Assembly (NCBI GenBank): GCA_965223545.1
Contig: OZ245006.1
Span: forward strand, 6,560,001 to 6,624,000
DNA: 64,000 bases
Reading direction: 5' to 3'
DNA from: Planctomycetota bacterium
GTDB lineage: Bacteria > Planctomycetota > UBA1135 > UBA2386
Shown here piece after piece: positions 2,950 to 34,231 of the stretch; positions within the stretch are counted from its first letter, which is position 1; every line of letters begins with the position of its first letter. Made by a program: the position numbers and the translations under genes. The notes beneath the pieces are model-generated. The model searched no databases. It saw nothing but the letters and a program-made list of their open reading frames with translations, and had not been told where the DNA came from.

Positions 2950-2956
2950 TGAGTCG

Positions 2957-7453: not shown

Positions 7454-7921
7454 ATGGTGACTTCCCGTACGCACACCAAGCGCGCGACGACCTGGCTCTG
7501 CCTGGCGATTGCGGTGCTCATCGCCCTGATGCCGGCGGGCGGGCTGATGGTGTGTTGGGGTGACGACGGGCACGTGCGCGTCGAAGTTGCCAGCGAAACC
7601 GGCTCATGTCCTTGCGAGGGGGACTCGGCGGGGGAAACCGGCCGAGCAAGCGTTCATCAGCAGAGCAAGGACCGCCACCCACCGTGCGACGATGTTGCGG
7701 TTGAGGCACCGAGAGTCTTCAAGGACGCAGAGCTCGGCCAGAAGCTGCCTCGGTCCACCGACAACCAGCCAGATGACGACTCGGCAGCGGGGGCAGCCTG
7801 GGGAGCGCATGGCAGCTGGGGAACCGGGGTAGGCAGTCCGGTTGCACGCTGGTCTAGTCCGGCAGCTGTGCTGCCGCGACAGCAGCTCGACCACGGGCGC
7901 ACTGTTGTCCTGCTGATCTGA
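7454..7921 (+). CDS. Hypothetical exported protein with Cys/His residues, first gene of the second efflux operon
   Basis: Hydrophobic N-terminus, VCWGDDGH, CPC and HPPC motifs; lies directly before TolC. Start is uncertain. Confidence 0.6.
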   Translation: MVTSRTHTKRATTWLCLAIAVLIALMPAGGLMVCWGDDGHVRVEVASETGSCPCEGDSAGETGRASVHQQSKDRHPPCDDVAVEAPRVFKDAELGQKLPRSTDNQPDDDSAAGAAWGAHGSWGTGVGSPVARWSSPAAVLPRQQLDHGRTVVLLI

Positions 7922-7984
7922 TCCTCCGGGGTTCTGTTGCTTCGTCTCCGATCCGGAGACGTCCTGAGAACGCCGGAGGAAGTC

Positions 7985-9442: not shown

Positions 9443-11079
9443 TCAGAAAGCACCAGTGGGAGATCACCATCATCGCAACAGTGTGCACGCTCGGTGGGCT
9501 AATCTCCGGCGGCCTGGTCGCAGGCGGTTTCGGCGCAAAACCGGAGACCGCGGAGGCTGACACCGGTGCCGCCCACGGCCCGCACCTTCCTGCGGCGACG
9601 CTTGAGAACCTCGGCGTTCGTATCGACCAGGTCCAGCCCACCACGTTCTTCAGGACCGTGTCGGTCGCGGCCGTAGTCGTTGACACGCCCACCACAGAAC
9701 AACCCGTCTACGCCCCGATCGGCGGGCGCATCGAGAGCATCGATGTGGAACCCGGCACAGTTGTGGCCCCTGGCAAGGCAGTCATCACTCTGGTGCGGGA
9801 TCCACTCCCGCGTCCGCAGCTGACCCTGACCGCCGAAGTGCTGCGGCCCGCTCAGGAGAGACTGCACCAGAGCGTACTCGAGCTACGCAAGTCGGGAGAA
9901 GAGGTTCGTATCGCAAGCACGGAGCTGGAACGAGTCCAGAAGTTCACGGGCAGGGTCGGTGGACGCGACCTTCCGATCATCCCGAGGCAGCGCGCGATCG
10001 ACCTTCGCTACCAGCTCTCGAGAGCCGAGAAGGCGTACGAGCAGGCACGGCTCGAACTCAAGAAGCACGGCCTCACCGATGCGCAAATAGCCGAAGTCGA
10101 GGGTGGTGCGCCGCTGCCGGAGTTCAACGAAGAAACGTGGCAACGAGCGCTTGCCCGCAACGGCCTGTGGCCAGCCGAAGCCCAGCAGCTCAGCGCGGCG
10201 CTCCCCAAGTCACTTCGTGCTCTCCCCTGGGTCACCGCGACCGTTGGCGAACTGGCCGCGAGCGGGCTCGCGACTCCAGAGCTCGCGCAGTGGATCTCGG
10301 CGGAAGAAGCTGCTCCCCACTTCCTCGACATCGGCGTGCTCCTGCAGCGCGGACACACGCTTGAGGATCTGAAGCGCCTCCACGCCTTGAATGCACTGGA
10401 GCCAGTCGTGCGCGTCGTGGCACCCGAGCTCGAGCAGGATGGCTCTTGGGACGTGCTCGACGTGCTAACCAAGCGCGGTGCCAAAGTAGAGGCTGGCGAG
10501 AGGCTTCTCACTCTCAGCGACCCGCGACGGCTGTTCCTGCGCACTGAGCCCGTCGGCGGTGAAGTGGGATCGGTCCTCATTGCCGCCAAGGAGCGGCACG
10601 CCATCGCTGCGACACCACTCATCCGGAACTCTGGGCCGGCGCTCGAGAAGCTAACGGTCAGCTACGTGCAAAGCTCTCAGGAGAACGAGGGCACGATTGC
10701 CTTTGTTGAAGTCGAGAACTCTATTCTCTCGCAGATCGATCGAGGACGCGGAAGAAGTTCCCGCACATGGTCGCTTCGCGACGGCATGCGCTACCTACTG
10801 AACGTGCCAACCGCGAAGTTGGACAAGGTCTATGTCTTGCCTTCCTCCGCAGTCACCGAAGACGGTCCCAACAAGGTTGTGTTCCTCCAGGACGGCGACA
10901 GCTTCAGGCCGGTCCCGATCGTGATCGCGTACCAGGATGACGAAGTCGTTGTCGTCCCCACGACCAAGGAAGTCGCTCTCTTCCCCGGCGATCTCGTCGT
11001 GCAATCCGGAGCGTTCGAGCTCGGCCTCGCGATGAAGGCTGGAGGTGCCGTGGACGCCCACGCAGGTCACAACCACTAG
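9439..11079 (+). CDS. RND efflux periplasmic adaptor, long form
   Basis: N-terminal TM; VYAPIGGRIESI lipoyl half; VLPSSAV; His-rich C-terminus DAHAGHNH; ATGA overlap with TolC. Confidence 0.82.
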   Translation: MIRKHQWEITIIATVCTLGGLISGGLVAGGFGAKPETAEADTGAAHGPHLPAATLENLGVRIDQVQPTTFFRTVSVAAVVVDTPTTEQPVYAPIGGRIESIDVEPGTVVAPGKAVITLVRDPLPRPQLTLTAEVLRPAQERLHQSVLELRKSGEEVRIASTELERVQKFTGRVGGRDLPIIPRQRAIDLRYQLSRAEKAYEQARLELKKHGLTDAQIAEVEGGAPLPEFNEETWQRALARNGLWPAEAQQLSAALPKSLRALPWVTATVGELAASGLATPELAQWISAEEAAPHFLDIGVLLQRGHTLEDLKRLHALNALEPVVRVVAPELEQDGSWDVLDVLTKRGAKVEAGERLLTLSDPRRLFLRTEPVGGEVGSVLIAAKERHAIAATPLIRNSGPALEKLTVSYVQSSQENEGTIAFVEVENSILSQIDRGRGRSSRTWSLRDGMRYLLNVPTAKLDKVYVLPSSAVTEDGPNKVVFLQDGDSFRPVPIVIAYQDDEVVVVPTTKEVALFPGDLVVQSGAFELGLAMKAGGAVDAHAGHNH

Positions 11080-11090
11080 GAGGCGCGATC

Positions 11091-14000
11091 ATGTTGAATC
11101 GAATCATCGCCGCCGCGCTCCGCAACCGGGCGATCGTCCTACTCCTTGCTCTGATCGTGGGCGGATACGGTCTGTTCGAGGCCGCGCGCACACCGATCGA
11201 TGTCTTGCCGGACTTGAACCGCCCCGTGGTCACCATCATGACCGAGGCCCACGGCCTGGTGCCCGAGGACGTCGAGCGCCTCGTGACCTGGCCGATCGAG
11301 CAGGTGATGAACGGGGCCACCGGTGTGTTTCGTGTCCGCTCGGCGAGCGGCCTGGGGCTATCAGTGGTCTACGTCGAGTTCGACTGGGGCACCGATATCT
11401 ATCTGGACCGCCAGATCGTCGCTGAGAAGCTGCAGACCGCAGTGCCCAACCTGCCGCCGGACGTGCAACCGATCCTGGCTCCCATCAGCAGCATCATGGG
11501 CCAGGTCCAGATGATCGGCTTCCAGAGCAAGACCGGGGAAACCGACATCCTCAAGCTGCGGCGCATCATCGACCGCGACGTTCGGCCGCGGATCCTGTCC
11601 CTCTCGGGCATCGCTCAGATCATCACGATCGGTGGCCAACCCTCCGAGCTGCAGGTCGTCGTCGACGCGGACAAGCTGCGCACGTTCGACGTCACTCTCC
11701 AAGAGGTGGCCGACGCCACGCGCGATGCGAACATCAACGTGGCAGGAGGGTTCCTGAACATCGGAGCCAAGGGACCGCTCGTGGCGGTGTCCGGCTTACT
11801 CGAAGAGCCCGACGAGCTCTCTCGTGCAGTCGTTCGGTCGGATCCGACGCGCCCGATTCGCATCGCTGACGTCGCTGAAGTGGTCTTCGGCCCCGCCGCC
11901 ATTCCGACCGGAACGGCAGGCATCAACGGCGAGCCGGGCATCATCATGGTGATCATGAAGCAGCCTGGGGTGGACACCCAGGACCTGACGAGGCGTGTGA
12001 ACGCCGAGCTCCGCCAGATTCAGCGCGAGCTGCCGAACGACGTCGCCATCGACGATGGCGTGTTTCAGCAAGCGGCGTTCATCGAACGAGCCATCGACAA
12101 CGTGCTCGAGGCGGTGCGAGACGGCGCCATCCTCGTTGTCATCATTCTGTTTCTGTTCTTGCTGAACTTCCGGACAACTTTCATCACGCTTTCCGCGATT
12201 CCTCTCTCGGTCGCGATCGCCTCGCTCGTGTTCGCCGCGTTCGGATTGACGATCAACACGATGACGCTCGGCGGACTTGCCGTGGCGATCGGGACGCTCG
12301 TTGATGACGCCATCGTCGACGTCGAAAACGTGTTCCGGCGCCTACACGAGAATTCGAGGCGCGAACGCAAAGAGCCCGTGCTTTGGGTGCTGTTCAAGGC
12401 GTCCAGCGAGATTCGGAAGCCCGTGATGTACGGCACGCTGCTCGTGACCGTCGTCTATCTGCCACTGTTCTTCCTCACTGGAATGGAAGGGCGTCTGTTC
12501 GCGCCGATTGGACTCGCCTACATCATCAGCGTGATGGCGTCTCTCCTCGTGGCGCTGACGGTCACCCCTGTCCTTTGCTACTACTTGCTCGGCCGTCGCA
12601 CTGCGTCCGCCACGGACGAGAAGTACGGAGGATGGCTCGTTGCCAGGCTGCGCGGAGTTGCTGCGAAGGGAGTCCGCATCAGCACTCGCCACATCGAACG
12701 GATCGTTGGAGTCTGCGCAGCGACCTTTCTGATCGTCGGAGCGTTCTTCGTCACGACTGGGTCCGAATTCTTGCCGCAGTTCAACGAGGGGACGGCGCAA
12801 GCCAACCTCGTTCTGCCGCCTGATGCGAGCCTCGAGACATCCGATCGGTTCGGTCGGCGGCTCGAAGAGCTCGTGGGAAAAATCGACGGCGTCAGCAGCG
12901 TTGCGCGCCGCACGGGCCGCGCTCCTGGGGACGAGCACGCGATGCCCGTCAGCGTCAGCGAAGCGATCGTCAACTTTGATCCAGACTCGAAACGATCCCG
13001 GAAGGAACTCATCGAGGACATCCGGGCGCAGGTCTCGCACGAGTTCCCCGGCGTGGCCAACAACGTGGAGCAGCCGCTGGCACACCTGATGAGCCACATG
13101 CTCTCGGGGGTTACTGCGCAGGTCGCAATCAAGATCACGGGCCCTGACCTCGATATCTTGCGGAACACCGCGTCCGAGGTCGAAGCCAAGATCAAGGCGA
13201 TTGATGGCGTCCGAAACCTCTACACGGAGCCGCAAGTTCTCATCGACCAAGTCGAGGTGAAACCACGCCGCACGGAGCTGGCTCGACTCGGCATAGGTGT
13301 TGCTGCCCTCGCGGAGACCGTCGAGCTCGCGATGGGTGGACAAGAGGTCTCCCGGCTACAAGTCGGCCAGATCACGTATCCCATCAAAGTCCGGCTCGAG
13401 GAGGAGGACAGAAAGGATCTCGTCCAGCTGTCGGGCCTCTACCTACGGCGCGGCGATGCCTCGCTGGCCCGCATCGACGACGTTGCCGACGTCCGCGTGT
13501 CGAAGACCCCCAACAACATCAACCGGGAGAACGTGCAGCGGCGTGTCGTCGTCCAGCACAACGTTGGCGGTCGCTCGCTCGGGGAGGTCGTCACGGACGT
13601 GGAGGCTGCTCTCCAGCCCGTTCGCGAGAAGCTCGCTGCTTTACCCGGATACTCGATTCGAATCAGCGGCCAATTCGAGGCCCAGCAGGAAGCGCAGGCG
13701 AAGATCCTGGCCTTCAGCATCCTATCGGTCGTGCTGATGGTGCTGATTCTCTACATGCATTTCCGCTCCTTGCGGCTCGCGCTGCTCGTCCTTCTCACGC
13801 GTCCGATCGCGTTCATTGGCGCGGCAGCCTACGTCGTGCTCAGTGGGCAGATCCTCTCCATTGCAACGCTCGTCGGCTTCATCGCCCTTCTCGGAGTCGC
13901 TGCACGCAATGCGATTCTCCTCGTTGACCACTACGTGCACCTGATGCGCGAGGAAGGGGAGTCCTTCTCGATCGAGATGCTGGTGCGAGCCGGGCAGGAG

Positions 14001-14339
14001 AGGATAGTCCCGGTCCTCATGACCGCGCTCACGAGCGGTATCGGCTTGGTGCCGCTGGCGCTCGCAGCAGACCAGCCCGGGCGCGAGCTTCTGTACCCGG
14101 TTGCCACGGTCATCATCGGCGGATTGGTCACGAACACGCTTCTCGATTTCCTCGTCATGCCTGGCCTCTTCTGGAGGTTTGGCCGAACCGAGGCAGAGCG
14201 ACTCGCAAGAGAATCCGTACGCACCGAGGACTTCGAGCACATTCGTGCGCAGCTCCTGCCGGACGGACAGGAAGAGGAACACCTAGAACCCGCGTTGGCC
14301 GGCGGTCAGCGCCTTGAACCTGGAGACCTGGAACGATGA
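11091..14339 (+). CDS. CusA/CzcA family heavy-metal efflux RND transporter
   Basis: 1082 aa; PIDVLPDLNRP, LGGLAVAIGTLVDDAIVDVEN, ERIVPVLMTAL. Confidence 0.95.
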   Translation: MLNRIIAAALRNRAIVLLLALIVGGYGLFEAARTPIDVLPDLNRPVVTIMTEAHGLVPEDVERLVTWPIEQVMNGATGVFRVRSASGLGLSVVYVEFDWGTDIYLDRQIVAEKLQTAVPNLPPDVQPILAPISSIMGQVQMIGFQSKTGETDILKLRRIIDRDVRPRILSLSGIAQIITIGGQPSELQVVVDADKLRTFDVTLQEVADATRDANINVAGGFLNIGAKGPLVAVSGLLEEPDELSRAVVRSDPTRPIRIADVAEVVFGPAAIPTGTAGINGEPGIIMVIMKQPGVDTQDLTRRVNAELRQIQRELPNDVAIDDGVFQQAAFIERAIDNVLEAVRDGAILVVIILFLFLLNFRTTFITLSAIPLSVAIASLVFAAFGLTINTMTLGGLAVAIGTLVDDAIVDVENVFRRLHENSRRERKEPVLWVLFKASSEIRKPVMYGTLLVTVVYLPLFFLTGMEGRLFAPIGLAYIISVMASLLVALTVTPVLCYYLLGRRTASATDEKYGGWLVARLRGVAAKGVRISTRHIERIVGVCAATFLIVGAFFVTTGSEFLPQFNEGTAQANLVLPPDASLETSDRFGRRLEELVGKIDGVSSVARRTGRAPGDEHAMPVSVSEAIVNFDPDSKRSRKELIEDIRAQVSHEFPGVANNVEQPLAHLMSHMLSGVTAQVAIKITGPDLDILRNTASEVEAKIKAIDGVRNLYTEPQVLIDQVEVKPRRTELARLGIGVAALAETVELAMGGQEVSRLQVGQITYPIKVRLEEEDRKDLVQLSGLYLRRGDASLARIDDVADVRVSKTPNNINRENVQRRVVVQHNVGGRSLGEVVTDVEAALQPVREKLAALPGYSIRISGQFEAQQEAQAKILAFSILSVVLMVLILYMHFRSLRLALLVLLTRPIAFIGAAAYVVLSGQILSIATLVGFIALLGVAARNAILLVDHYVHLMREEGESFSIEMLVRAGQERIVPVLMTALTSGIGLVPLALAADQPGRELLYPVATVIIGGLVTNTLLDFLVMPGLFWRFGRTEAERLARESVRTEDFEHIRAQLLPDGQEEEHLEPALAGGQRLEPGDLER

Positions 14340-19701: not shown

Positions 19702-19956
19702 ATGGACGCTGACGTCGAGCGAGTGCTAGAGCGCCTCCCTTCCCGCCCCGTGTGGGTCGAGCGCGGGTCGTGTGTCATGTGCGATAGCCGCATCTCGAAC
19801 GAGTGGTGCACGGCGGACGCGGACGGCAGTTGCTGTATCGAGCTTCGCCACTTCAGAAGAAGCGACGGTTGCGACAACGAGCATGCGCTGACCGACCCCG
19901 AGTTCGACCTACTCGTGGCTGCGCTGGAGCGGCAGCGAATGGCTCAACCAAGCTGA
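19702..19956 (+). CDS. Small Cys-containing hypothetical protein
   Basis: ATG with a GGCGAG upstream; fills the gap between larger genes; no family recognised. Confidence 0.35.
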   Translation: MDADVERVLERLPSRPVWVERGSCVMCDSRISNEWCTADADGSCCIELRHFRRSDGCDNEHALTDPEFDLLVAALERQRMAQPS

Positions 19957-21497
19957 AGCGCGGGTTCGCCCTCTTCCGGCACAAGCTCGAGCTCGAGGCC
20001 AAGATCCATCCCGAGTCGCTCCACGTCAGCTTCGCACCACGGCTCTAGGTGTTGCTCAAGGCGTCCCCGGGGGACGAACTCTCGCGTCTCAGCGGTTCCG
20101 CTGTGCCGGGGAGTTGCGACGAACTCCGCGAGCGGCGCTGTGTCCCGGAACGGCGCAGATGCGAACGGAGTCAGGTAGTAGCCGGTGAGGCCGTTTCGCG
20201 CGTCGGTTGGCGGGATGCTCATGAACTCGCTCGGCATGACGACATCGGCCTTGACGCGCTGCTCGCTCCTCGTGCGCTGGCCGCGTCGAAGTGGGCCGGC
20301 GCCGTTCACGCTCTCCCGAAGCTCGATCCTCTCATGCTCCCCGAAGAGGCTTGATGCCCACTTCGCAGTCGACGGGCTCTCAAGGCGCAGTATCGCCTTG
20401 TGGGAGCACATCGCCATGAGTTCCTCGGCAACGTAGTTCCCATAGACCTGCTTCATGCCGTCGTTGTCCTGGTAGCCGAGCACCGCGCAGCCACCTTTGG
20501 AGCGAGCCTTGGTGAGGAACGCCGGCAAGGCATCCAGTTCAGCAGCGTCGCGGACCTCATCGAGGAAGAGCCAGGTCCTGCGCTCAGCCGATTCTTGCTG
20601 CGCAAGGACGAGCTGCGTGATCCGTCGGAGCATCAGGCGATTTAGCACATCAAGTGATGCGCGAGCCATCTCGTTGTTGCCCAGCACGAGCACGTAGTCC
20701 GAGGTCGACCACTCGGTGAGGCTCACCTTCTCCGGTGCGTGTTCCCAGAGCGCAGCGACAACTTCGAGGCTTGCGAGGTTCGCCCGAATCGTCCCGATGA
20801 CTCCGGCGCCTTGACGCTCCGAACGACCAAGGTGCGTGTCGAATCGTTCCCTCCCCTGCGAGCTTGTGTAGAGGAGCCTCTTCAGTCGTTCCCAGGAGCG
20901 GGTTGCAAGGACCACGTCCCGAAGGGTCCAGTTCTCGCCGCAGTGGTCACATAGCGACATGACAAGGCCCCAGAGAACGTCGCGCGCGGCCGGAATGAAG
21001 TAACCGCCTTCCTTCTGCTCTTTGGCGATGAGGTCGAAGGCGAGCTGAAGAGCGAGTGCTGGCGAGTTGACGTCCTTTGCCACGTCCCAGGCTGCACCGT
21101 TCCCATCGAAAGGGTCGAGCGTTCGAACGGGGCAGCGCAGGTCCAGGCTCTGAAGGAACGGCAGGACGTCTTGCTTTGGGTCGTAGACGACCGCCCGCTG
21201 GTCGGGTTCCACGCCGATTCGAGGCAGCACGTCCGCCATGAGGCGGTGGATGGTGAGCGTCTTCCCAGATCCTGTCGTGCCGATTACGAGAAAGTGCTGG
21301 TTCTCAGCGCGCCGTAGCAGAGTCTCGCTTCCCCAGCGGACACCACGAGGTTCTCCGGTGCCGTGATGTCTCCTTCCCTTCGGGTTCACATCGAGCTTTC
21401 GCCCGCGAAGGTGACGGTCCTTTGGTGATCGGAGCGAAAGGGCGAGCGCGAAAGCGATCGCAGCGCCTGCGATCAGGAGGCGAGCCCAGAGCGTCAT
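19944..21497 (-). CDS. Type IV coupling protein (TraD/TrwB-like)
   Basis: N-terminal TM; HFLVIGTTGSGKT Walker A; VVYDPK; WLFLDE Walker B; ARSKGG; ATGA-coupled to the relaxase. Confidence 0.9.
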   Translation of the reverse strand: MTLWARLLIAGAAIAFALALSLRSPKDRHLRGRKLDVNPKGRRHHGTGEPRGVRWGSETLLRRAENQHFLVIGTTGSGKTLTIHRLMADVLPRIGVEPDQRAVVYDPKQDVLPFLQSLDLRCPVRTLDPFDGNGAAWDVAKDVNSPALALQLAFDLIAKEQKEGGYFIPAARDVLWGLVMSLCDHCGENWTLRDVVLATRSWERLKRLLYTSSQGRERFDTHLGRSERQGAGVIGTIRANLASLEVVAALWEHAPEKVSLTEWSTSDYVLVLGNNEMARASLDVLNRLMLRRITQLVLAQQESAERRTWLFLDEVRDAAELDALPAFLTKARSKGGCAVLGYQDNDGMKQVYGNYVAEELMAMCSHKAILRLESPSTAKWASSLFGEHERIELRESVNGAGPLRRGQRTRSEQRVKADVVMPSEFMSIPPTDARNGLTGYYLTPFASAPFRDTAPLAEFVATPRHSGTAETREFVPRGRLEQHLEPWCEADVERLGMDLGLELELVPEEGEPALQLG

Positions 21498-23920
21498 GCA
21501 ACCTCCAGCAAGAGCTCGGGCACGTTCGCTTCCATGGCATCAAGCGCCATCTCTTGCTGTCGGGAACGCTGCATGAGGCGAACTACGTCCGCCATGCCTT
21601 CCTCCGCAGACTCAATATCGACGTAGAGCCGGGTTTCCTCACGGGCTCTTGATGCTTGCACGTAGGTCGACTCCCGGTCGGTCATGACCCCGCCGCAAAG
21701 CACAAGGCAGCGCTCGACGCTGGCGCCCTGTGCCGAGTGGGTTGTTGAGGCGTAGCCGAGTTCAACGTGGTCGTAGTCGGCAAGGTCGACCGTCACTCGC
21801 GTGCCGGAGTCGAGCTTGGCCGTGAGGGTGCGTGCCGCTCTGTCGACTCTGGTCACCGTTGCTCGGTCGCCGTTGTTGAAGAGCCCGGTGTTCCGCCGAA
21901 AGATGATTCGGTCTCCAACGTGCGCCTCTCCGCTGCGCAGCGCTACGCACTCGGGGCTGAGAAGCCCGGACGCGAATTTTGCCTGCTGGATCATCCGGTT
22001 CACCATGGTGGATTCGGCGCGCGTTCCAGTGAGAACGAGAGTCTCGGAGAGACCGCCGCTTGCGGCAGCGCGTTGCCAGTCGGAGACGAGCCGCTGCAGG
22101 ACTTCCTTTCGCGTTTCGGCCACGGTGAGGAGACCGCGCCGGTCGAACTCTTCGAGCGCAGCAGCGGCCTTTCCGTGCGCGAAATCGTGAACCGAGCGCT
22201 TTGCCCAGTCTTGTCGCTGTCGCCGGATCTCTTCCAGCACCGCAGCGCCATGTCGCTCTGAAAGGGCCGCGAATGGAGACCCGGCGTCGATCGCCTGGAG
22301 TTGCTTCCTGTCGCCAACGAGGACGAGCTTCGCGCCCGTCTTTCTCGCCACCGCGATGATCTCGGCAGTCTTTCGTGTCCCAAGCATCCCCGCTTCATCC
22401 ACAACGAGCACCGACTTCGAGTCGAGCCGAAGTTCGCCTCGACGGATGAGGGCGAGTGTTCGATGAAGCGTGCGGCTCTCGATGCCTGAGTCTTCCTGCA
22501 GCCGGCTTGCCGCAGCGGCGGCAAGTGCAGCTCCGTGCACTCGGTAGCCAGCGTCTCCCCAAGCTTCAGCAGCGGCACGCAGCATGAAGGTCTTTCCGGT
22601 GCCGGCCATGCCCTGAACAAGCCGGAGTGCGCCGCCCGAGGTGACATGCTCGAGCGCTGTGCGCTGTTCTCGGCTTAGCGTTGACCGTCGTTGGAGGACG
22701 TCTCGGAGATCGCCGTCCCGGACATCGCGCATTCGGTGCGCGAGCTCGGAGGCGTCACGAAACAGCTGCTGCTCAACTCGGAGGAGATCACGCGTTGTGA
22801 ACTTCGGTTCTTCGCGGCGCTTCCCAAGCGCCACGAGCTCGGGTGACTGCCGCAAGACCTCCGCCACGCCCTGGCAGATCGCATCGACGCCAACGCCGTG
22901 AGACTCGACAGCATCTGCAACCGCTCGAATGAGGTCCTTCTCCCCGAAGAGGCTCTTTCGCTCGGTGAGCTTCTGCGCAGCCGGAAGAACTGCGTCACGG
23001 ACGGCGCGGCGCGGATCCGGGTGGGCCGCGGCGCCAAAGAGATCCGCTGTGATGTTGAACCCGTGCGCTTTCCCTACTTCGCGCCAGTGAGCGCGGAGCT
23101 TCTCGACATCGACCTCGGTCTTGCCAGATCGAGTTTCGAGGACCGCCTTCTGGGCGCCCTTGGCACCAGAAAGCCCCTTCTCCTGCATGTAGGTTTGGAT
23201 GGCCTTCGTGCGCTTCGAGAAGACGTCGCAAAGCTCCTTCGGGACGCCGTCGATCTCGCACCACTTCTCGCGCCTGCTAACGCCCAGGCCAAGCTCAGCC
23301 CGAAGCTGGCAGAAGAGTTCCGCGCGGTAGAGCACCCCGGCAGTCATGGCGTGCTGGTAGAGCTTCGTTCCGTGGATCGTGCCGCCACCAGGGTTCAGAT
23401 TCTGGACAAGGCAGTGGGTATGGATGTGGGGATCGGGCACGGCACCTGGGTTCTCAGGGCGTGCGCTGGAATGGTCGAAGACGGCCGCCACGAGCTTCGC
23501 CTTCTCGAGGCGCTCGCCGCCGGCGCCACGCCGGGTGAAGAGCGCGACGTCCTCGACGTAGCCAAGTGCTGCTCGCACAGCCTTCCGGTGAGCCGCCTGG
23601 ATCGCGTCGCGGAGGTCCTTGTCCGCCTGAGACCAGAGCACGGAGACAGATTTCGGAGCGCCGAAGGTGAGGTCGAAGCCTGCGCGTCTGTCAGCGCCGG
23701 CCCCGGCGTTCTTCACCATCGCGGTGCGGCCGTCGGGGGTGAATCCTCGGAGGAGGTTCGCGAGCGTCTCCTGGTCGACCTCTCCGCGGAGGCCGAGGTC
23801 AGCACTCCCCTTCCCGAACCACTGTCCGGCCGGTTCACCGGATTCGGTGTAGTAGCTGCCGCTTGCAAGGTCCGTGTAGTAGCTCTCCTGACCGGCTGAT
23901 ATGCGCCCAATGCACAGCAC
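21494..23920 (-). CDS. MOBF (TrwC/TraI-like) relaxase with C-terminal helicase
   Basis: N-terminal YY..YY; GFDLTFGAPKSVS; HUH motif DPHIHTH; GMAGTGKT; VVDEAGM; GYASTTHSAQG. Confidence 0.95.
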   Translation of the reverse strand: MLCIGRISAGQESYYTDLASGSYYTESGEPAGQWFGKGSADLGLRGEVDQETLANLLRGFTPDGRTAMVKNAGAGADRRAGFDLTFGAPKSVSVLWSQADKDLRDAIQAAHRKAVRAALGYVEDVALFTRRGAGGERLEKAKLVAAVFDHSSARPENPGAVPDPHIHTHCLVQNLNPGGGTIHGTKLYQHAMTAGVLYRAELFCQLRAELGLGVSRREKWCEIDGVPKELCDVFSKRTKAIQTYMQEKGLSGAKGAQKAVLETRSGKTEVDVEKLRAHWREVGKAHGFNITADLFGAAAHPDPRRAVRDAVLPAAQKLTERKSLFGEKDLIRAVADAVESHGVGVDAICQGVAEVLRQSPELVALGKRREEPKFTTRDLLRVEQQLFRDASELAHRMRDVRDGDLRDVLQRRSTLSREQRTALEHVTSGGALRLVQGMAGTGKTFMLRAAAEAWGDAGYRVHGAALAAAAASRLQEDSGIESRTLHRTLALIRRGELRLDSKSVLVVDEAGMLGTRKTAEIIAVARKTGAKLVLVGDRKQLQAIDAGSPFAALSERHGAAVLEEIRRQRQDWAKRSVHDFAHGKAAAALEEFDRRGLLTVAETRKEVLQRLVSDWQRAAASGGLSETLVLTGTRAESTMVNRMIQQAKFASGLLSPECVALRSGEAHVGDRIIFRRNTGLFNNGDRATVTRVDRAARTLTAKLDSGTRVTVDLADYDHVELGYASTTHSAQGASVERCLVLCGGVMTDRESTYVQASRAREETRLYVDIESAEEGMADVVRLMQRSRQQEMALDAMEANVPELLLEVA

Positions 23921-25864: not shown

Positions 25865-26207
25865 GCTCCTCCGTCCGGATGCAGAGGGGCGAAACCAGTT
25901 TCGGGGCAAGCGTCTCCTATCAACAAATGCCCTTGACCACTTTGGGCGAACCGCGCTACGGTGGCTCAAACGTCTGACGAGCCTCTCCGTGGGCATTGTC
26001 GTTATCGAGAGAACCGAGGCTGCCACCTCGGTTTTTTCGTTTCTGAAACGTTCGCTCTATCCGATAGGCCTCTCCCCAATAGTTGACTCGCGCGAAACGA
26101 ACAGTGCTGCCAATTCCGCGCTACTTTAGGTCAACTAAACCTGCTGTCGTATCAGTGCGCAAGATGCAAAAAGCGCAGTGAATGGAGGGGGTTGGTATTG
26201 AGGCGCA

Positions 26208-26810
26208 CGCGTCCCGGTATCCCGGGTAAGTGTTACCCGGGATACCGGGACGCGGGAGAGCGTGTTGTTGAGTTCGGTGTCCCGGGTATTGGATATGGTG
26301 CGTCCCGGGCAGCGATGTTTCGAATCCGCGAGCACGCTGTCCAAGTTCGTGACTACGTTGAGTTGACTCGCACCGAGATGCCGACTCCCCGAGGAGTCGT
26401 GTCCCGGGTAACCGATACCCGGTATCCCGGGACTTGCGAGTGTTCAGATCTGCGGTCGCACACGGCGTATCCCGGTATCCCGGGTGCGTGCCTCCCGGGA
26501 TACCGGGATACGTTTCCAGGGCCAAATGACGGCCGCCACTCTTGCTCTGCGGCTAGTTCGGTGGTTTCGCGGTTCCGGGGAGTATCTCAAATTGGCCTCC
26601 TGGCGAACGAGGTTGCGCCCTATGAGCGCGATTTGCCTTGGTCTGACAAAGAGGGCGAGCTCAGGCAATTTGAGGCATTACGGAGACCGCAGCAAATTGA
26701 TACCCGGGATACCGGGATACATGGCGAGGGCCGAGGTCAAGCGCCGAGGTCGGCGCTGGACAGGCGTGCTTTGTCTATTGACGAATGTCGCGATACCCGG
26801 TATCCCGGGA
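26208..26810. repeat. Array of CCCGGG-core palindromic repeats (centromere- or iteron-like)
   Basis: Ten CCCGGG cores, mostly as GGTATCCCGGG or CCCGGGATACC. Perfect inverted repeats at 26208-26254 (22-bp arms) and 26466-26512 (19-bp arms). Confidence 0.85.
26778..26806 (+). promoter_or_regulatory. Candidate sigma70 promoter of parA overlapping a repeat
   Basis: TTGACG-17 bp-TATCCC; the -10 lies inside GATACCCGGTATCCCGGGA. Confidence 0.45.
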
Positions 26811-26856: not shown

Positions 26857-27813
26857 ATGCGGTTTGACCGAGCTCAAGTTATCGTCTTGTCCAATCAGAA
26901 AGGCGGATGCGGCAAGACGACCACGGCAGTGAATCTAAGTGCTGCGCTGTCGCTTCGCGGCTACAGAACGTGTCTCGTTGACATAGATGGCCAGTGCAAC
27001 GCGACGACGTCCTTTGGCATCGACCTTGACGATTTGCAGAGGCAGAAGCGGCCGAGCATTCTCGATGTCTACCTCAACAGGCGTCCCGCTGAGTCGATCG
27101 TCTTCCCTGTGGGCGGCGAGGAGCGATTCGGGGATGCGCTCTGCATCCTCCCGGGGCATCGCTCGCTTGGGGCGGTGCCGCACCGATTGGAGGCCGAGAT
27201 GCGGGCGGAGGCGATGGAAGAGGGGATGTCTTCCGAAGACGAAGATGAGATCCGAATGGACCATCGCACTCGCCTGCGCGCGTCTCTTGAGTCGCTCAAG
27301 GATGCTTTTGACATCATCATGATCGACACGCCGCCTGAGCTCGGCTTCTTGCTCAGCACCGCGCTTGGAGCGGCGGACTGGTTCATCATCCCGGTGTTTC
27401 CGTCGGCCTACGACATGGCGGGACTCGAGAGACTGATGGCGAACGTGACGAAGGTCAGGAAGCAGAGAAACCCGGAGCTGCGGCTTTTGGGTGTTCTGGT
27501 GGGGAACTTCGACAAGACGACTGTTCTCGACCAGGAGATCTATGACGCACTGAAAGCCAAGTTCAACGCGCATCTTTCGCCAACGACGATTCGAAGAGGT
27601 GTTCGGTTGCGCGAGGCTGCCGCCCACGGGTTGACGATCTTCGAACATGATCCGCAGGGCCCGATCGCGGCGGAGTTTGAAGAGGTGGCAGATCTCACGG
27701 TTCGTGGGATCCGAACTCAGATTGAAAGGCGCGCCGCAGGTGCCCAGATCGCAGAGCCACAGCCGCTTCGAGCTACGCGTCGAGGCAATGCGATGGAGGT
27801 AGCCAATGCCTAA
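26857..27813 (+). CDS. parA: ParA/Soj family partition ATPase
   Basis: NQKGGCGKTTT deviant Walker A; VDIDGQCNAT; IMIDTPP. Confidence 0.95.
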   Translation: MRFDRAQVIVLSNQKGGCGKTTTAVNLSAALSLRGYRTCLVDIDGQCNATTSFGIDLDDLQRQKRPSILDVYLNRRPAESIVFPVGGEERFGDALCILPGHRSLGAVPHRLEAEMRAEAMEEGMSSEDEDEIRMDHRTRLRASLESLKDAFDIIMIDTPPELGFLLSTALGAADWFIIPVFPSAYDMAGLERLMANVTKVRKQRNPELRLLGVLVGNFDKTTVLDQEIYDALKAKFNAHLSPTTIRRGVRLREAAAHGLTIFEHDPQGPIAAEFEEVADLTVRGIRTQIERRAAGAQIAEPQPLRATRRGNAMEVANA

Positions 27814-28402: not shown

Positions 28403-28438
28403 CGCCGTGTCCCGGGTAGCGATACCCGGGACACGGCG
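28403..28438. repeat. Perfect 16-bp inverted repeat with the same CCCGGG core, downstream of the par operon
   Basis: CGCCGTGTCCCGGGTA-GCGA-TACCCGGGACACGGCG. Confidence 0.85.
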
Positions 28439-28507: not shown

Positions 28508-30241
28508 CTACGTGAAGTCCGGAAGTAGTTCACAGCGGTCCCAGGCGGGAGTGAAGACGAGCACACCGTAGCGCGCCCTTGTTATCGCCACGCTTAGTAG
28601 GCGCCTACTTCTGGGCAAGCCATTGTCGCGCGGATCACCCGGTAGAACCAATCGGTTGTGCGGACCGAATCCGTCCACGATGAAGACCGCGTCGAACTCC
28701 TTCCCCTTGCACTTGTGGAGGGTGAGTAAGACGCGGCGCGCCCCGGCTCCAGCCGAGTCGGTAAGTCGCTCTCGCAGAAGGACGTCGTCACCGAGTTCAA
28801 CCGCGCCGGCGTAGCATCCGTTCGCGTGATAGGTTTCCGCAAGACGCTCGGTAGCTGGCTCCCTTTCGCCCGCCGGAAGACGGAGGTCCAGGGTGCGCAC
28901 GACTCGAGCGAAGTGCTTGCCCGGCAACCCGCGGAGAATCTCTCGGATCGCGCGCAGATCTCGGATGGGGTCGCCGGTGCGTGCCCTAGTAGCATCATTC
29001 ACTTTGGCGAGAAGCTGCTTCACGGCACGCATCTGGCCGGTGACGCTGTTCTGGGCAACAGCCTGGCTCCATTCGGCCAGGCGTGCAGCCTGCTTAGCTG
29101 CTTCTCCGCCTTTCCGCAGACGGTGGATGTTAGCAAGGAGCTGGAACGCATCTGCGACACAAGCCCGTTGCGGTTCCGGTTCCGCTTCGAGGAGGCGAAG
29201 GGCGATGCGCCACGCAAACACGATGCTCTCATAAGAGAGAAGGACCTGATGTCCGAATGGTCGCGGGAAGGCATCGCTGGGTGTCTTCAAGAGCCCGGAA
29301 AGCTCTCCAACACGCCTGTTTCGCGTTGCCATGATCGCGATGGTCGGAGAGGCGCCTTGCCCAAGGCGCTTCATGAGGCGCTTCTCGGTTGATACCAGGG
29401 CCTTCTTCAACGAATCAGCCAAGTCGGCGTTCTTGCGGATTCCCCAGAGTGCTACATCACTTGGCTTTTTGATCCGTGGGGCGTCGTCGAGCACGGCTCG
29501 CGCAACTGCAACCAGGTCGCGCTCGCCGCTTCGATGGTTGGTGCCTTCCAGCTTGACGACCTTGAAGCGGCCCGTGGCTTCGAGTTGCTCGAGCCGATCA
29601 TGGCGCGAGCCAGGACGGTAGTCGTAGATCCGCTGTTCTGGGTCTCCGAGACAGATGAGCTGGCTTTGAGCGGCGAGGTTTCCGATGAGGGTGTCCTCGT
29701 TGTCATCCGTGTCCTGGTATTCGTCAACGAGGATGAGCGGATAGGCGCTCGAGTAGGCGGCAGCTAGATGTTCGTGCCGTTCGATGAGGTTGAGGCAGAG
29801 AGGGGCGAAACGGTCAAAGGTCACGTGGCCCTCTTCTTGCTCCAGGCGCCCGATTTCGCCCTCGCTGTCGTCTGGATGGCTGGCCTCGACAAGTCCAAGT
29901 TCTTCGGGTGGAAACAGCTTGAAGGCGGGCAGGCCCACGAGTTTGTGATGGGACGCAAGAAGGCGATAGCAGAAGGCGTGAAACGTAGTGACGTGGAGTA
30001 AGCGCCGCGTTTCGCGTGTCAGGTTGTCGCCCGCGGCAGCGCGAATGCGTTGCACCGCTGCGTTGGAGAAGCTCACGAACAGCACGCGCTGGAAGTCCAG
30101 CATCTGCCCGCCGCGAATCAGTTTGGCGGCTTTCCACAGCGCAACGGAAGTCTTGCCCGTTCCGGGTCGGCCGATGACGAGCAAGTTCTCGTCGCTATCG
30201 AGAACCCTCTGCTGGCTCTTCGTCGGTTTCTTCTTCCCCAT
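28508..30241 (-). CDS. UvrD-like helicase, Gabija GajB-like
   Basis: GRPGTGKT, LVDEYQD, GDPEQRIYDYR, TLHKCKGKEFD, VAITRAR; directly downstream of the OLD nuclease. Confidence 0.85.
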   Translation of the reverse strand: MGKKKPTKSQQRVLDSDENLLVIGRPGTGKTSVALWKAAKLIRGGQMLDFQRVLFVSFSNAAVQRIRAAAGDNLTRETRRLLHVTTFHAFCYRLLASHHKLVGLPAFKLFPPEELGLVEASHPDDSEGEIGRLEQEEGHVTFDRFAPLCLNLIERHEHLAAAYSSAYPLILVDEYQDTDDNEDTLIGNLAAQSQLICLGDPEQRIYDYRPGSRHDRLEQLEATGRFKVVKLEGTNHRSGERDLVAVARAVLDDAPRIKKPSDVALWGIRKNADLADSLKKALVSTEKRLMKRLGQGASPTIAIMATRNRRVGELSGLLKTPSDAFPRPFGHQVLLSYESIVFAWRIALRLLEAEPEPQRACVADAFQLLANIHRLRKGGEAAKQAARLAEWSQAVAQNSVTGQMRAVKQLLAKVNDATRARTGDPIRDLRAIREILRGLPGKHFARVVRTLDLRLPAGEREPATERLAETYHANGCYAGAVELGDDVLLRERLTDSAGAGARRVLLTLHKCKGKEFDAVFIVDGFGPHNRLVLPGDPRDNGLPRSRRLLSVAITRARYGVLVFTPAWDRCELLPDFT

Positions 30242-30249
30242 TCGCTGCT

Positions 30250-32121
30250 TTACTCCGCAACATCGTCCGTTTCGCCATCCGGCTCAGCCAGGACGTCCGG
30301 AAGTAGGTCGGAGAACATCGCTGCAAGCGGGTCGTCTGCAGGAAGCAGCTTCTCCCCACACTGAAGATGGAGCTCGCCGAGGAACCCAAGTAGGGTCGGA
30401 GGGAGTTCGTCGGCAGGGCACATGGACACGAGGATTTCCGCGTAGCCCTCACCCTTGCGCGCCTTGAGAACGTCCTCGACGCAAGTGCGCCAAGACTCGT
30501 CTGCGTCGGTATCGGCGGGAACGGGCAGACTGGGGAAGTCGGTTCGGGAGCGAACGTCGCTGATGAAGGACTTCAGCACGTCGACTGGCACCTCGGCAGC
30601 GATGAGTCGCTCGAACCCGCGGTAGGAGAGCTCCCAGACTCGAGTGGCTGACCCTTCAATATCGCTCCGCATGTCGCCCGTAGCGATTGAGTCGCAGAAG
30701 ACAAAGCTCGGAATCCCGAGCTCAGCGAAGAACTCAGCCACCTTCGCGAGTTCTCCGTCGCCTCCGACTTCGACCGTGACTACTCCAGCAAGGTCGAGTG
30801 GGGCGTAGGCTGAGCCGGTGCGATGAAGAACGTCGCTTGCTGCCGGAATCGCGTAGAGCTCGGTGAGTCCTTCAACAAGCAAGACCGCCCGTCCGAGCAG
30901 TCCCTCTGCGAATCGAAGTCGAAACCCTTGCCGCAGAAACTTCTCCTTCACTCTGCCCTCAGGTTGGACGCGCGATGTAGACACACCGCCGTCCTCGGAC
31001 CGCGACAGCACGAGAATGTGGTCGGGAAGGAACTGCTCTGCTACGTAGGGGGAGTGACTCGTGGCGACCAGCTGGGTTGCGGATCGCTTCAGCTCGGAGA
31101 TGATTCGCCGTTGCGTGTGGGGGCCGAGCGCGATCTCGGGCTCCTCCATGGCGAAGATGACGTTTTGCTTGTTTGCAGCGATGGCACTCAAGAGAGACAG
31201 GACAAGAACGTTCGAGGTCCCTGCGCCAAGCCTGTCGAAGGGGAGCGAGTGGTCGCTTTCTCTGCTCGAGAGGAAGTAGCTGACGACCGTTCGCAGATGC
31301 TCACGGGTCAGCCGACTCACCTGAAGACTCGTCGAGCCGGTGTCTCCCTCCGCCAAGGCAACGAACTTGCGTATGTGCTGCTCGATGTCATTGAGCGCGT
31401 CACGGAGGTTTTCGTCTTGATCGAGCCGCTCACCCAGGTCACCAAGGCCGTCGAGAATCGACTCCCAAACACGCGGGCGCGCTGAACGCAGACGTAGCAG
31501 GACGTCAAGCAGACTCCCGCGCTGGAGGCTCGCGGCGCGACGAGCAGTCCGTAGGGACCTCAGATACAGGAACCCGATGGCCTGCTTGTGCCGCTTCGTG
31601 AGGGGCTCGAGTTCGTCTTCAGGTTTGTCGGGAGTTCGGAAGAAAGTCCGGACTGTGAACTCGTCTTCTTCGGAGTCATACCAGCCGAAGAATCCCACCC
31701 GGAGCACATACTGCTCCTCCCCGAGGGTGAGGTCATCGAGTTCAGCATGCGTGTACGGTCGATGTTCGTCCGCGTTCCATGCCTCAAGATGGGCACGAAA
31801 CCGTGTGCGCTCGTTTGCGTCGAGACGCCCCAGCACGACCTCGATCTCGATTCTGGGTGGGGTGGCGGTCTCGGTCTCCGACTGGTCAACCTCGGAGTTT
31901 GCCGCAACCTCAACCGGCTGGTAGTTGCCTCGGTGGAAGTCGTGTTCGTTGATAGTGTCGGGACCCGCGGCTCGATCAGGCCCGAGCACAAGGTCCAGTG
32001 CCTCCAACACTGTCGACTTGCAGACGTTATTCGGCCCGACAAGAAGGGCGTGCCCAGGGAAGCGGACCGTGCCGTCCGCGATCCCTCGAAAGTTTTGAAT
32101 CCTGACCTGTATCAGTTCCAT
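30250..32121 (-). CDS. OLD-family ABC ATPase/TOPRIM nuclease, Gabija GajA-like
   Basis: IQNFRGI, LVGPNNVCKST, LGAG signature, MEEPE, TSHSP, TOPRIM LLVEGLTE; ATG 32121. Confidence 0.88.
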   Translation of the reverse strand: MELIQVRIQNFRGIADGTVRFPGHALLVGPNNVCKSTVLEALDLVLGPDRAAGPDTINEHDFHRGNYQPVEVAANSEVDQSETETATPPRIEIEVVLGRLDANERTRFRAHLEAWNADEHRPYTHAELDDLTLGEEQYVLRVGFFGWYDSEEDEFTVRTFFRTPDKPEDELEPLTKRHKQAIGFLYLRSLRTARRAASLQRGSLLDVLLRLRSARPRVWESILDGLGDLGERLDQDENLRDALNDIEQHIRKFVALAEGDTGSTSLQVSRLTREHLRTVVSYFLSSRESDHSLPFDRLGAGTSNVLVLSLLSAIAANKQNVIFAMEEPEIALGPHTQRRIISELKRSATQLVATSHSPYVAEQFLPDHILVLSRSEDGGVSTSRVQPEGRVKEKFLRQGFRLRFAEGLLGRAVLLVEGLTELYAIPAASDVLHRTGSAYAPLDLAGVVTVEVGGDGELAKVAEFFAELGIPSFVFCDSIATGDMRSDIEGSATRVWELSYRGFERLIAAEVPVDVLKSFISDVRSRTDFPSLPVPADTDADESWRTCVEDVLKARKGEGYAEILVSMCPADELPPTLLGFLGELHLQCGEKLLPADDPLAAMFSDLLPDVLAEPDGETDDVAE

Positions 32122-32303
32122 CCGACGCCCACCTGCAGCTTTACTTGTCGGGATCGTGCACTCCAGCCCAAGTCCCGCGCTGACGGTCGCACCGCGGCGC
32201 ATGCGAAGTCAAGGAGTTAGGGTGCGTTTCTCTCCCGGACAGACGACGGCCCCGCGTCACGCCGACTCTGCGAAGCACCCGTGACCCGCCGGGACTACTG
32301 CTG

Positions 32304-32606
32304 GTGATCATGGCTAGCAAGGCGGTGCTCCCAGCAGACCTGGTCCCACTCCGCAGGTGGGCGTCAACGCTGGGAGTGCGAACCCGCGACCTTGCGGCTC
32401 AGCTTGACGCCGACGGAGTGACCGTGTGGGAACCGGTTCCTGGCGCACTCAGGGTCTCGGACGCTGCGATGGGGGAGTGGCTCGAGACTCGAGAAGTCTC
32501 GCGGCTTGCGATGCTGGCCGCAGCTAGGAGCCGATCAGTGCGGCGAGCTGCTCGTCCAGGCGGTGCGCGGCCCGCAGTGCTTCTTCCGCTTGGACACCAC
32601 GGCTAG
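32304..32606 (+). CDS. Putative excisionase / HTH protein
   Basis: Short ORF with LRRWASTLGV...LRVSDAAMGEWL (Xis/MerR-like pattern), convergent with the integrase. Confidence 0.5.
   Translation: MIMASKAVLPADLVPLRRWASTLGVRTRDLAAQLDADGVTVWEPVPGALRVSDAAMGEWLETREVSRLAMLAAARSRSVRRAARPGGARPAVLLPLGHHG
32523..32598 (-). repeat. Duplicate of the integrase 3' end (matches 32976-33051)
   Basis: 76 bp with 7 mismatches; both copies encode GVQAEEALRAAHRLDEQLAALIGS*. Confidence 0.92.
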
Positions 32607-32637
32607 GCCTCGAGTGCCCTGGAAAATGCGGGTGGGG

Positions 32638-32847
32638 TCATCCTTGTTCAGAAGCCGCCGTTGATCGTGGACGCTGACTGCTTCGAGCATCGACCTTGCC
32701 GAAGTCTGACACTCGGAGCCCATGCCTCTGGTGGATGCCGTCGTAGCACGCTTCACAAAGCGTCGCGCCGCAGCCGCATGGGATCGTGAAGTCTTCTTCA
32801 ACCTTCGTCCCGCAGTCGGCGCAGAAGACCGCTGGAAGATGCCTCAT
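32638..32847 (-). CDS. Small Zn-finger-like protein (69 aa) between the duplicated integrase ends
   Basis: CADC...CGC...CEAC...H..H pattern; ATG start. Confidence 0.5.
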   Translation of the reverse strand: MRHLPAVFCADCGTKVEEDFTIPCGCGATLCEACYDGIHQRHGLRVSDFGKVDARSSQRPRSTAASEQG

Positions 32848-32976
32848 GTCAGTTCGATACTGGCTGCTTGCTGTGCCGGGAGGTGCTGTTGGTTGAGCCT
32901 CCCGCGGCCCGACTCTCCACTAGTCCGGGCAGGCCCAGCGTGCTTCTTTGATTCCCGACCGACTCGCTCGCCGGTG

Positions 32977-34044
32977 CTACGAGCCGATCAACGCGGCCAG
33001 CTGCTCGTCCAGGCGGTGCGCGGCCCGCAGTGCTTCTTCAGCCTGGACGCCGAGGTATTTCTGGGTCGTCGTGAGGTTCGTGTGCCCCATCTGGTGCTGA
33101 ACCAGGCGGAGGTCGCCGACCTTGTTGAGCGCCGTCGCGTAGGTGCGCCGCAGCGCCCGCGCTGAAAGGCGTGGTTCCTTGAGGCGTCGCTGCCAGCGCT
33201 TCAGCACGACGGAAACGGTCGTTGCCCTCATGAAGGGCCCCCGGCCAGTGCGGGCCTTGAGACGGGCCATGACGCCAACCAGGCGCTTGCCAAAAGCGAC
33301 CTGGCGGAAGCGCCGGGCGGTTCCCTTGTGCTGCGTAATGCGAACCGTGCCGCCGTTCTCCAACAAGGTGAAGTCCGCCGCACGAACCCGCTCGCACTCG
33401 AAAGCCCTGGCACCGGTGAACGTGATGAACATGACAAGGTCGTGGTGGAGCTCGGCGTTCTGTCGCTCACTTGCGAGGATGCGTTCCGCGAAACCAACCG
33501 CTTCCTCGATCGTGAAAAACGGTCGCTCGGGCTCTCGGGTCTTCGGTCGCTCAACGCGCCGAGCCGGGTTCTCAGCTTCGGTGAAGCCGGCCACCTTGAA
33601 TACGCGGCCGAGCACGACGAGATCACCGCGGACGGTGTTCGGGCTCGCCTTGTGCTTCCGCCTGCGCTCGGCCTTGAACCCTTCGATATGGTCGGGAGTG
33701 ACGTCGAGAACAGGGGCCTCGGGGTTCAGAATCGTCGACCACCGCGCAAACTTCTGCCTGTAGCCCTTCGCCGTGACCTCGCTTCCTCCGTTCGCGAGCA
33801 GCGCCTCCACAGTCTTGTCGAAGGCCTGGGCGAGCGTGAGCTCGCCGATTCGCTGCGCCTGTTCGTGCTTTGCCTTCATGCGCTTCCACGCCTCGAAGGC
33901 TTCAGCCTGAGTGTCGAAGGCAGGACCCCAGAGCGACTTCCCGTCCACCTGGAGCTTGGGGCGCCACACCCATCCTCGGCTGAGCTTGCGCGGGTAGATC
34001 CCGACGTAGCCCGACTTTCGCCGTGGCTTTCTCGCGCTACTCAT
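32977..34044 (-). CDS. Tyrosine recombinase / integrase (355 aa)
   Basis: ATG 34044; TGAR..E, RALRRTYAT, QMGHTN and TQKY catalytic motifs; adjacent to the tRNA 3' end. Confidence 0.93.
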   Translation of the reverse strand: MSSARKPRRKSGYVGIYPRKLSRGWVWRPKLQVDGKSLWGPAFDTQAEAFEAWKRMKAKHEQAQRIGELTLAQAFDKTVEALLANGGSEVTAKGYRQKFARWSTILNPEAPVLDVTPDHIEGFKAERRRKHKASPNTVRGDLVVLGRVFKVAGFTEAENPARRVERPKTREPERPFFTIEEAVGFAERILASERQNAELHHDLVMFITFTGARAFECERVRAADFTLLENGGTVRITQHKGTARRFRQVAFGKRLVGVMARLKARTGRGPFMRATTVSVVLKRWQRRLKEPRLSARALRRTYATALNKVGDLRLVQHQMGHTNLTTTQKYLGVQAEEALRAAHRLDEQLAALIGS

Positions 34045-34053
34045 GCCAGAGAA

Positions 34054-34091
34054 AGTAGCCCAGCGAGTAGCCCGCCGCTTCAAAGTAGCCC
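34054..34091. promoter_or_regulatory. Three AGTAGCCC direct repeats, candidate integrase arm-type sites
   Basis: Exact octamers at 34054, 34066 and 34084, between the int start and the tRNA. Confidence 0.55.
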
Positions 34092-34155
34092 GGCGGCGGC
34101 GGCGCCTGAGCGTGCCGAAGTGCGTTTCAGACGGGCACTTCTTCGCGCTCGTGTG

Positions 34156-34231
34156 TGGTGGGCAGGGGCGGATTTGAACCGCCGACCCCAGCATTTTCAG
34201 TGCTGTGCTCTACCAACTGAGCTACCTACCC
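34156..34231 (-). tRNA. tRNA-Phe (GAA)
   Basis: GGGTAGGTAGCTCAGTTGGTAGAGCACAGCACTGAAAATGCTGGGGTCGGCGGTTCAAATCCGCCCCTGCCCACCA; 76-nt cloverleaf with encoded CCA. Confidence 0.97.

Follow-up and report, generated by a model that had tools for sequence, protein, structure and literature searches.

Some integrase genes carry the attachment site of the element that encodes them. SSV-type integrase genes contain their own attP, and recombination alters or splits the 3' end of the integrase; the integrase gene of Myxococcus phage Mx8 reportedly contains its own attP as well. Islands in which a tyrosine integrase targets a tRNA gene, and the integrative mobilizable elements among them, follow another plan, for which the Islander work gives a definition (PMC4383910). 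In them the integrase lies beside the tRNA gene, a displaced 3' tRNA fragment marks the far end and the crossover region falls at the anticodon loop, and integrative mobilizable elements bring a relaxase, a coupling protein, and defence and metal-efflux cargo. Two described systems leave a second gene end behind. In E. coli icd, where prophage e14 is inserted, two gene 3' ends (icd and icdC) that differ synonymously bracket the inserted DNA (PMC13626634). In the T6SS arrays of V. cholerae and in Rhs arrays, an incoming homologue replaces the resident one and pushes back its 3' end together with the linked downstream gene; homology-facilitated illegitimate recombination, described as rare, was proposed for such displacement (PMC5361080).

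The window analysed here is a stretch of 64,000 nt from a Planctomycetota bacterium, and it holds an integrase gene whose 3' end occurs twice. The locus agrees with the tRNA-targeted islands in all of the traits above and differs in that its integrase tail is duplicated, which parts the integrase from an excisionase (Xis)-like partner. Unlike the Mx8 and SSV types, its attachment pair is a tRNA-Phe repeat upstream of the integrase gene.

The island and the predicted target of its integrase

By its gene content, the locus forms the integration module of an integrative mobilizable island that targets tRNA-Phe (Table 1). The start codon of the integrase lies 112 bp from tRNA-Phe, and the last 46 bp of this tRNA recur exactly (46/46, same orientation) at C1:6538427-6538472, beyond the window. 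The island between the two attachment repeats measures about 55.7 kb and has a GC content of 0.60-0.66, compared with about 0.70 for the genome. An 8-bp motif found next to the tRNA recurs four times, once with a mismatch, close to the far attachment repeat; we take these copies, by analogy with lambda-type integrases, to be arm-type sites of the integrase. In the 800 bp around the spacer that separates the duplicated gene ends, no copy of this motif was found, and the best inverted-repeat match at either spacer edge is 6/9, against 7/9 at the tRNA core. The attachment repeat is the 3' half of the tRNA and lies outside the integrase gene, and the coding tail of the integrase bears no att features. 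The four best genomic relatives of the integrase (39-44% identity) are all located beside tRNA-Phe. These observations suggest that tRNA-Phe is the integrase's own target, and they argue against the original prediction that the integrase gene itself serves as the attachment site.

Apart from the Gabija pair and the mobilisation genes in Table 1, the cargo includes RND efflux genes, ArdC, a weak second relaxase/coupling pair and a second tyrosine recombinase. In its genes the island is composite: it carries two modules for mobilisation and a further recombinase. A scan of about 20 of its ORFs found no complete mating-pair apparatus.

Several other features of the island were observed. The second tyrosine recombinase is encoded at L026:3711-4808 (+), directly left of the window and within the island, and is 23% alike with the second recombinase of the island in another genome, G059. 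The far end (L025:4299-14808) contains a DNA methylase, ArdC, weak Replic_Relax and TrwB-like genes, a YhcG nuclease, and a trio of kinase-like, vWA and PP2C genes. A 265-bp direct repeat (84%) at C1:6538797 and C1:6540503 suggests another accreted module. Long palindromes (47 bp at 26208-26254 and 47 bp at 26466-26512, both in 26192-26600, and 36 bp at 28403-28438) surround the ParA region and adjoin a 520-aa ORF without a Pfam match; they are possible origin or partition sites. Positions 1-14339 hold several RND efflux sets, probably metal resistance cargo, and membrane-fusion-like proteins with repeated Cys/His-rich units are encoded at 4145-5000.

Table 1. Features of the integration module and neighbouring island genes (window coordinates)
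Feature	Position	Strand	Remarks
TrwB-type coupling protein	19944-21497	-	E 4e-53
TrwC (MOBF) relaxase-helicase	21494-23920	-	E 4e-72
ParA-like ATPase of island	26857-27813	+	sequence match
gajB (UvrD-like helicase), cargo	28508-30241	-	PADLOC GajB E 2e-126; adjacent to gajA
gajA (Gabija OLD-family nuclease/ATPase), cargo	30250-32121	-	PADLOC GajA E 2e-190
Excisionase-like (predicted winged HTH) gene, 98 aa	32310-32606	+	convergent on integrase
Distal copy, read as tail of a sister integrase allele	32523-32598	-	on + strand, Xis-like codons 72-97
41-bp identical block	32546-32586 = 32999-33039		exact match inside both copies
Spacer, 377 bp	32599-32975		GC 0.62; 367 bp unlike partner gene; no recombinase, no arm motif
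Weak gapped look-alike of tRNA-Phe attachment repeat	32622-32659	+	inverted relative to tRNA; overlaps end of zinc-finger ORF
Cys/His zinc-finger-like ORF, 69 aa	32638-32847	-	real protein family
Proximal copy, working integrase 3' end	32976-33051	-	codons 332-355, stop, 1 bp
Tyrosine integrase, 355 aa	32977-34044	-	PF00589 E 6e-12; catalytic Tyr is residue 330
8-bp motif, three copies	34054-34091	-	between tRNA and integrase start
tRNA-Phe(GAA)	34156-34231	-	left attachment repeat = 34156-34201

Duplication of the integrase 3' end

The two copies of the integrase end are 76-bp direct repeats spaced 453 bp apart with 7/76 mismatches, and all seven mismatches are synonymous in the integrase frame (GGC/GGT, CAG/CAA, GCT/GCG, CTG/CTC, GCG/GCA, TTG/CTG and TCG/TCC), so that both the coordinates and the codon pairs originally reported are confirmed. 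The repeat sets in at G332, two codons past the catalytic Y330 as had been noted; in tyrosine recombinases the helix following the Tyr is important. The likeness runs 10 bp beyond the integrase stop codon (86 nt, 88%), reaching 32966 on the proximal side. Setting aside tRNA and coding-repeat matches, this repeat (E about 1e-24) is the only match of such strength in the region. The duplicated gene end brackets the insert and leaves the integrase intact.

The probability that seven random substitutions are all synonymous is 1.1e-4 to 4.2e-4, depending on the weight given to transitions, which upholds the original view that both tails were under selection at the level of the integrase protein. 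In the Xis-like frame on the opposite strand all seven mismatches are non-synonymous (six codons), whereas the integrase protein has no change; this is a poor fit to long divergence in place. Had the distal copy stood outside an integrase while the seven changes accumulated, some of them should alter the integrase reading, and none does. We therefore infer that both tails come from recently working integrase alleles. In gene orientation, three mismatches fall in the first 12 bp and four in the last 23 bp, with 41 identical bp between them. At least 13 consecutive unchanged codons are seen in 1.3% of random mismatch placements (p about 0.013, a post hoc test), and mismatches flanking an identical block fit a crossover or conversion within the repeat.

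An excisionase-like gene convergent on the integrase

The distal copy is not an orphan tail. It also codes on the plus strand, which had been overlooked: the whole of it is spanned by an Xis-like ORF whose stop codon begins 5 bp beyond the copy. AlphaFold (7-row alignment) models residues 11-60 of the 98-aa protein with pLDDT 87-91 as beta-alpha-alpha-beta-beta-alpha, and gives the overlapped tail a pLDDT of about 50, so that the protein may not need this tail. In Foldseek the top row for the model is Pukovnik Xis (4J2N; prob 0.99, E 0.06), followed by BldC, with prob 0.98-0.99 and E 0.06-0.2 among the leading rows and none at E 0.001 or better. Neither Pfam (0 families at E<=10) nor a word search returned a homologue of the ORF, and the NCBI/ENA gene calls do not include the exact 98-aa protein. 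Its Atlas row has HTH_17 on 43% of members at 0.90, which is a lead only. The protein is thus predicted to be excisionase-like by fold and position. It resembles the MerR-like/winged-helix excisionases (Pukovnik Xis 4J2N, HTH_17) in predicted fold and in being convergent on the integrase, but has no significant sequence match and no structure match at E<=0.001.

The same arrangement is seen in relatives. In all six of the closest relatives an Xis-like ORF is convergent on the integrase; four of these pairs overlap (128-221 bp), one abuts (+11 bp) and one is separated by a Dam gene. A profile built from these six relatives, which are therefore not independent of it, detected another 12 ORFs (E 1e-10 to 0.012) that are convergent on integrases outside the profile and lie at most 2.5 kb from them; five of these ORFs overlap the integrase. 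The relative frame of overlapping integrase/Xis-like pairs is that of the distal copy in 7/9 cases, although this common frame may partly reflect the scarcity of stop codons in GC-rich antisense frames. These results suggest that in this family the integrase and its convergent Xis-like gene often have common 3' ends.

It was also observed that the Dam methylase between the integrase and the Xis-like gene of G059 lies at L022:13991-14962 (+). The source genome has a second integrase of the wider family at L027 (G000:C1:7842000-7858000), and a small convergent ORF overlaps its end. Integrases of the tRNA-Phe family described here also stand at the head of two other elements (L021 and L024): one in G027 is prophage-like and has a phage tail protein, and one in G010 brings a tRNA-Met of its own.

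The spacer and its zinc-finger-like ORF

The small Cys-rich ORF reported in the 377-bp spacer is borne out as the 69-aa ORF; a search of 1.84 billion representatives yielded 13 related proteins at E<=0.001. A 9-row alignment that includes 8 of the 13 has 11 invariant columns, among them C9, C12, C24, C26, C31, C34, H39 and H42, and from this Cys/His pattern the protein is expected to bind zinc. Members of the family occur alone, fused to a Dam methylase or, in one case, fused to a CHC2 primase finger; one of the Dam-fused records is named Planctomycetes, and in P0020 the domain is fused to the same Pfam methylase family as the intervening Dam gene of G059. The ORF has the look of an accessory domain in mobile DNA. 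The family was absent from all 338 other class genomes searched, which leaves no sign that it moves as a cassette. In viral contigs one weak locus was found (E 4e-4), Pfam gave a weak B-box row below the cut-off, and the Atlas gave unnamed clusters only. No methylase remnant was detected behind the zinc finger in three minus-strand frames.

No sigma-70 promoter was found, and one terminator-like site compared with 0.7 expected; the 129 nt ahead of the zinc-finger ORF show no more folding than shuffled sequence does (z -0.21). The look-alike of the attachment repeat has 28 matches in 38 columns, a score reached by 10-32 of 1500 shuffles and by 0-15 of up to 1500 island windows. It was first spotted by eye, at a distance of about 20 bp from the junction, and may be due to chance, but it is an oddity that counsels caution. 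Since the likeness between the copies runs 10 bp past the integrase stop, neither edge of the spacer is homologous, which is what an insertion would produce.

Sister alleles in metagenomic runs

We compared contigs, which drop rare forms, from four of 14 listed metagenomic runs. In run X12, which may be the source sample, contigs covering 29800-32575, 32557-33028 and 33010-34185 show no difference from the window, and the breaks between them are those expected from a 41-bp exact repeat. The middle contig (472 bp) runs from one copy of the identical block to the other at a depth of 21.8, against 21.9 for the integrase contig. The duplication is real DNA and not an artefact of merged haplotypes, an origin that the original prediction had kept in view and that this contig, spanning copy to copy at single-copy depth, contradicts.

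In run X1, from an independent study, the contigs break at 32575 and 33010 too, so the block branches there also. The left contig differs from the window by 15 letters and four gaps and the right contig at 25 of 1175 nt; no middle contig was obtained. Of these 25 differences 21 were listed: 17 of them fall within 33079-33343, a 265-bp stretch directly before the tail, and four in the rest. The listed differences include 20 coding changes, and 16 of these are synonymous. From such patchiness near the tail, sister islands seem to have exchanged this end of the gene by homologous recombination. For the spacer, X1 has a word share of 0.60 (79% of the run read), which lies between the values expected with no spacer (0.46-0.52) and with an identical spacer (0.68-0.74); the missing spacer cover in X1 is not evidence of absence. 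Run X7, from a third study, contains 235 bp (32596-32830) unchanged with the junction unbridged, run X6 has three short unchanged pieces, and runs X5, X8 and X9 show word shares of 0.05-0.13. A further sister integrase, P0012, differs at 7/177 residues, three of them in the tail. It is evident that sister integrase alleles circulate and that mosaic alleles occur in X1.

Frequency of comparable duplications

No relative of the integrase exceeds 44% identity in the 91 family genomes searched, and none exceeds 51% among 8000 scored proteins; a single-protein scan of genome contigs confirmed 0 of 113 stretches. When 401 genomes of the phylum were searched at the DNA level, all matches outside the source genome were short, and a 21-nt piece of the repeat has no exact match in viral contigs.

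We then searched the 3 kb behind 157 tyrosine-recombinase ORFs, that of the window included, for a copy of the last 300 bp of each ORF. The window alone is positive (E 4e-26), with a comparable duplication in 0 of the 156 others, which are mostly distant XerC/D-like ORFs, in part repeats of each other, and include only six fair comparisons. Marginal matches of 19-40 nt (E 1e-4 to 7e-4) in seven other ORFs were not counted as duplications. ORFs with less than 600 bp of downstream DNA were skipped, and the survey left out L001-L009, L011-L020, L025-L026, L028-L037, L118-L120 and L171-L187; of these, L001-L009 and L011-L020 are mostly covered by larger stretches, except L014, L015 and L019. In L082 and L061, matches of 22 and 28 nt to the recombinase gene end lie about 1-1.3 kb downstream (E 1e-4 and 7e-4), and these may be chance.

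In the four relatives with DNA between the integrase and the Xis-like gene, the best few rows per locus contain no decayed integrase tail. Neither an empty site, a circle or other cargo, nor a single-copy or donor allele, was seen in the contigs of the four runs and behind the 156 recombinase ORFs, among which no close allele is readable across the junction.

Origin of the duplication

We consider it probable that a sister allele gave way to an incoming integrase allele that brought its own downstream DNA, and that the last 25 codons of the displaced allele survive as the end of the excisionase-like gene. Two sister alleles would have met, and the incoming one, with zinc-finger DNA behind its stop, would have replaced most of the resident. 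This could have occurred in two ways: homologous recombination on the integrase/tRNA side coupled to an illegitimate join at codon 331/332, or tandem integration at tRNA-Phe and a subsequent deletion with its end at that codon pair. The last 25 codons of the resident would have been kept because their opposite strand is the end of the resident excisionase gene, which would have acquired its present stop 5 bp downstream. The seven synonymous differences would then represent the divergence of the alleles while both tails worked as integrase ends, not later selection on an orphan copy. The outcome would be a hybrid module in which the overlap of the two genes is uncoupled and each keeps its own end. 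As in the case of the V. cholerae T6SS arrays and of Rhs (PMC5361080), an incoming homologue would replace a resident one and push back its 3' end with the linked downstream gene; unlike that case, the stranded piece is the antisense end of a retained gene, the genes are an integrase and an excisionase-like gene, and there is one event and no array.

An origin from a 453-bp circle of a sister element (86 bp of integrase tail plus 367 bp) is unlikely, though it leads the remaining explanations. A RecA-type single crossover in the 41-bp block would have inserted the circle and made both copies mosaic, which would account for the central identical block and for the 86-nt repeat that brackets the spacer on both sides, and short-read contigs cannot separate a linear duplication from a circle plus an empty site. 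Against this, a circle would have to form, be transferred and recombine within only 41-86 bp; the spacer in X12 has the depth of the integrase, and none of the 15 contig joints shown (of 16) skips or repeats 453 bp.

The original proposal, that a satellite remnant or non-autonomous cassette integrated site-specifically in the integrase 3' end and brought a replacement tail in the manner of icd/icdC, is slightly less likely still. Its geometry is that of e14 in icd as given in PMC13626634, the likeness sets in close to the catalytic Tyr and breaks off shortly after the stop, the island holds a second tyrosine recombinase, and a weak att-like stretch lies near the junction. But that stretch is inverted and off the junction, the spacer contains neither a recombinase nor an arm motif, its edges are poorer in inverted repeats than the tRNA core, and the resident integrase has a complete att pair at the tRNA. 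Moreover, neither the duplication nor the zinc-finger family recurs in the recombinase ORFs and class genomes surveyed. In the same source, e14 is a 15-kb prophage that excises, whereas the insert here measures 377 bp, has no recombinase and was not observed to excise, and the antisense strand of the distal copy is coding. Were the cassette reading correct, islands would have a novel means of gene capture and of governing when they excise. A wider form of reuse has a slender chance only: the integrase/excisionase overlap would be a reusable entry point, with spare-tail cassettes entering and leaving via the 41-bp block, so that the island switches between overlapped and uncoupled states and the excisionase transcript keeps about 80 nt complementary to the end of the integrase mRNA; the integration module would then contain a switch for both cassette capture and regulation.

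Still less credible is an exact duplication at insertion, selected for saving both overlapping genes, whose working copy was later converted by sister alleles. Any insertion into the overlap must duplicate it to keep both genes, and X1 shows patchy exchange in this part of the integrase, but conversion would have to hit both ends of the proximal copy, including the end beside the non-homologous spacer, and spare the middle. An assembly artefact from merged strains is very improbable: sister alleles do exist in metagenomes, but the 472-bp X12 contig joins both ends with no differences, X1 has the same break points in an independent study, 235 bp of the spacer are identical in a third, and the window sits in an 8.07-Mb contig.

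Against displacement weigh the identical central block, the two edges of the spacer, the low modelling confidence of the overlapped Xis-like tail, the rarity of the recombination route in PMC5361080 and the failure to find a single-copy or donor allele in the data surveyed. The displacement of one allele by another remains our preferred reading, and the duplication is most likely an ordinary one-off recombination scar between sister islands, not a reusable site or a new capture system.

Significance

We found no description of an integrase-tail duplication that uncouples an integrase from its excisionase gene, a weak negative from a literature with limited coverage of subscription papers. The new detail is that the stranded integrase tail doubles as the end of an excisionase-like gene, and the lesson is that the antisense frame should be inspected before a duplicated gene end is named an attachment site. 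Two protein families that lack annotation, one Xis-like and one with a zinc finger, also emerge from the locus, in what is probably Planctomycetota mobile DNA. If the displacement reading is true, it offers a clean, small example of the swapping of integration modules between sister islands, in which the overlap of two genes constrains where DNA can be inserted and an 'orphan' gene end is kept for its coding on the opposite strand.
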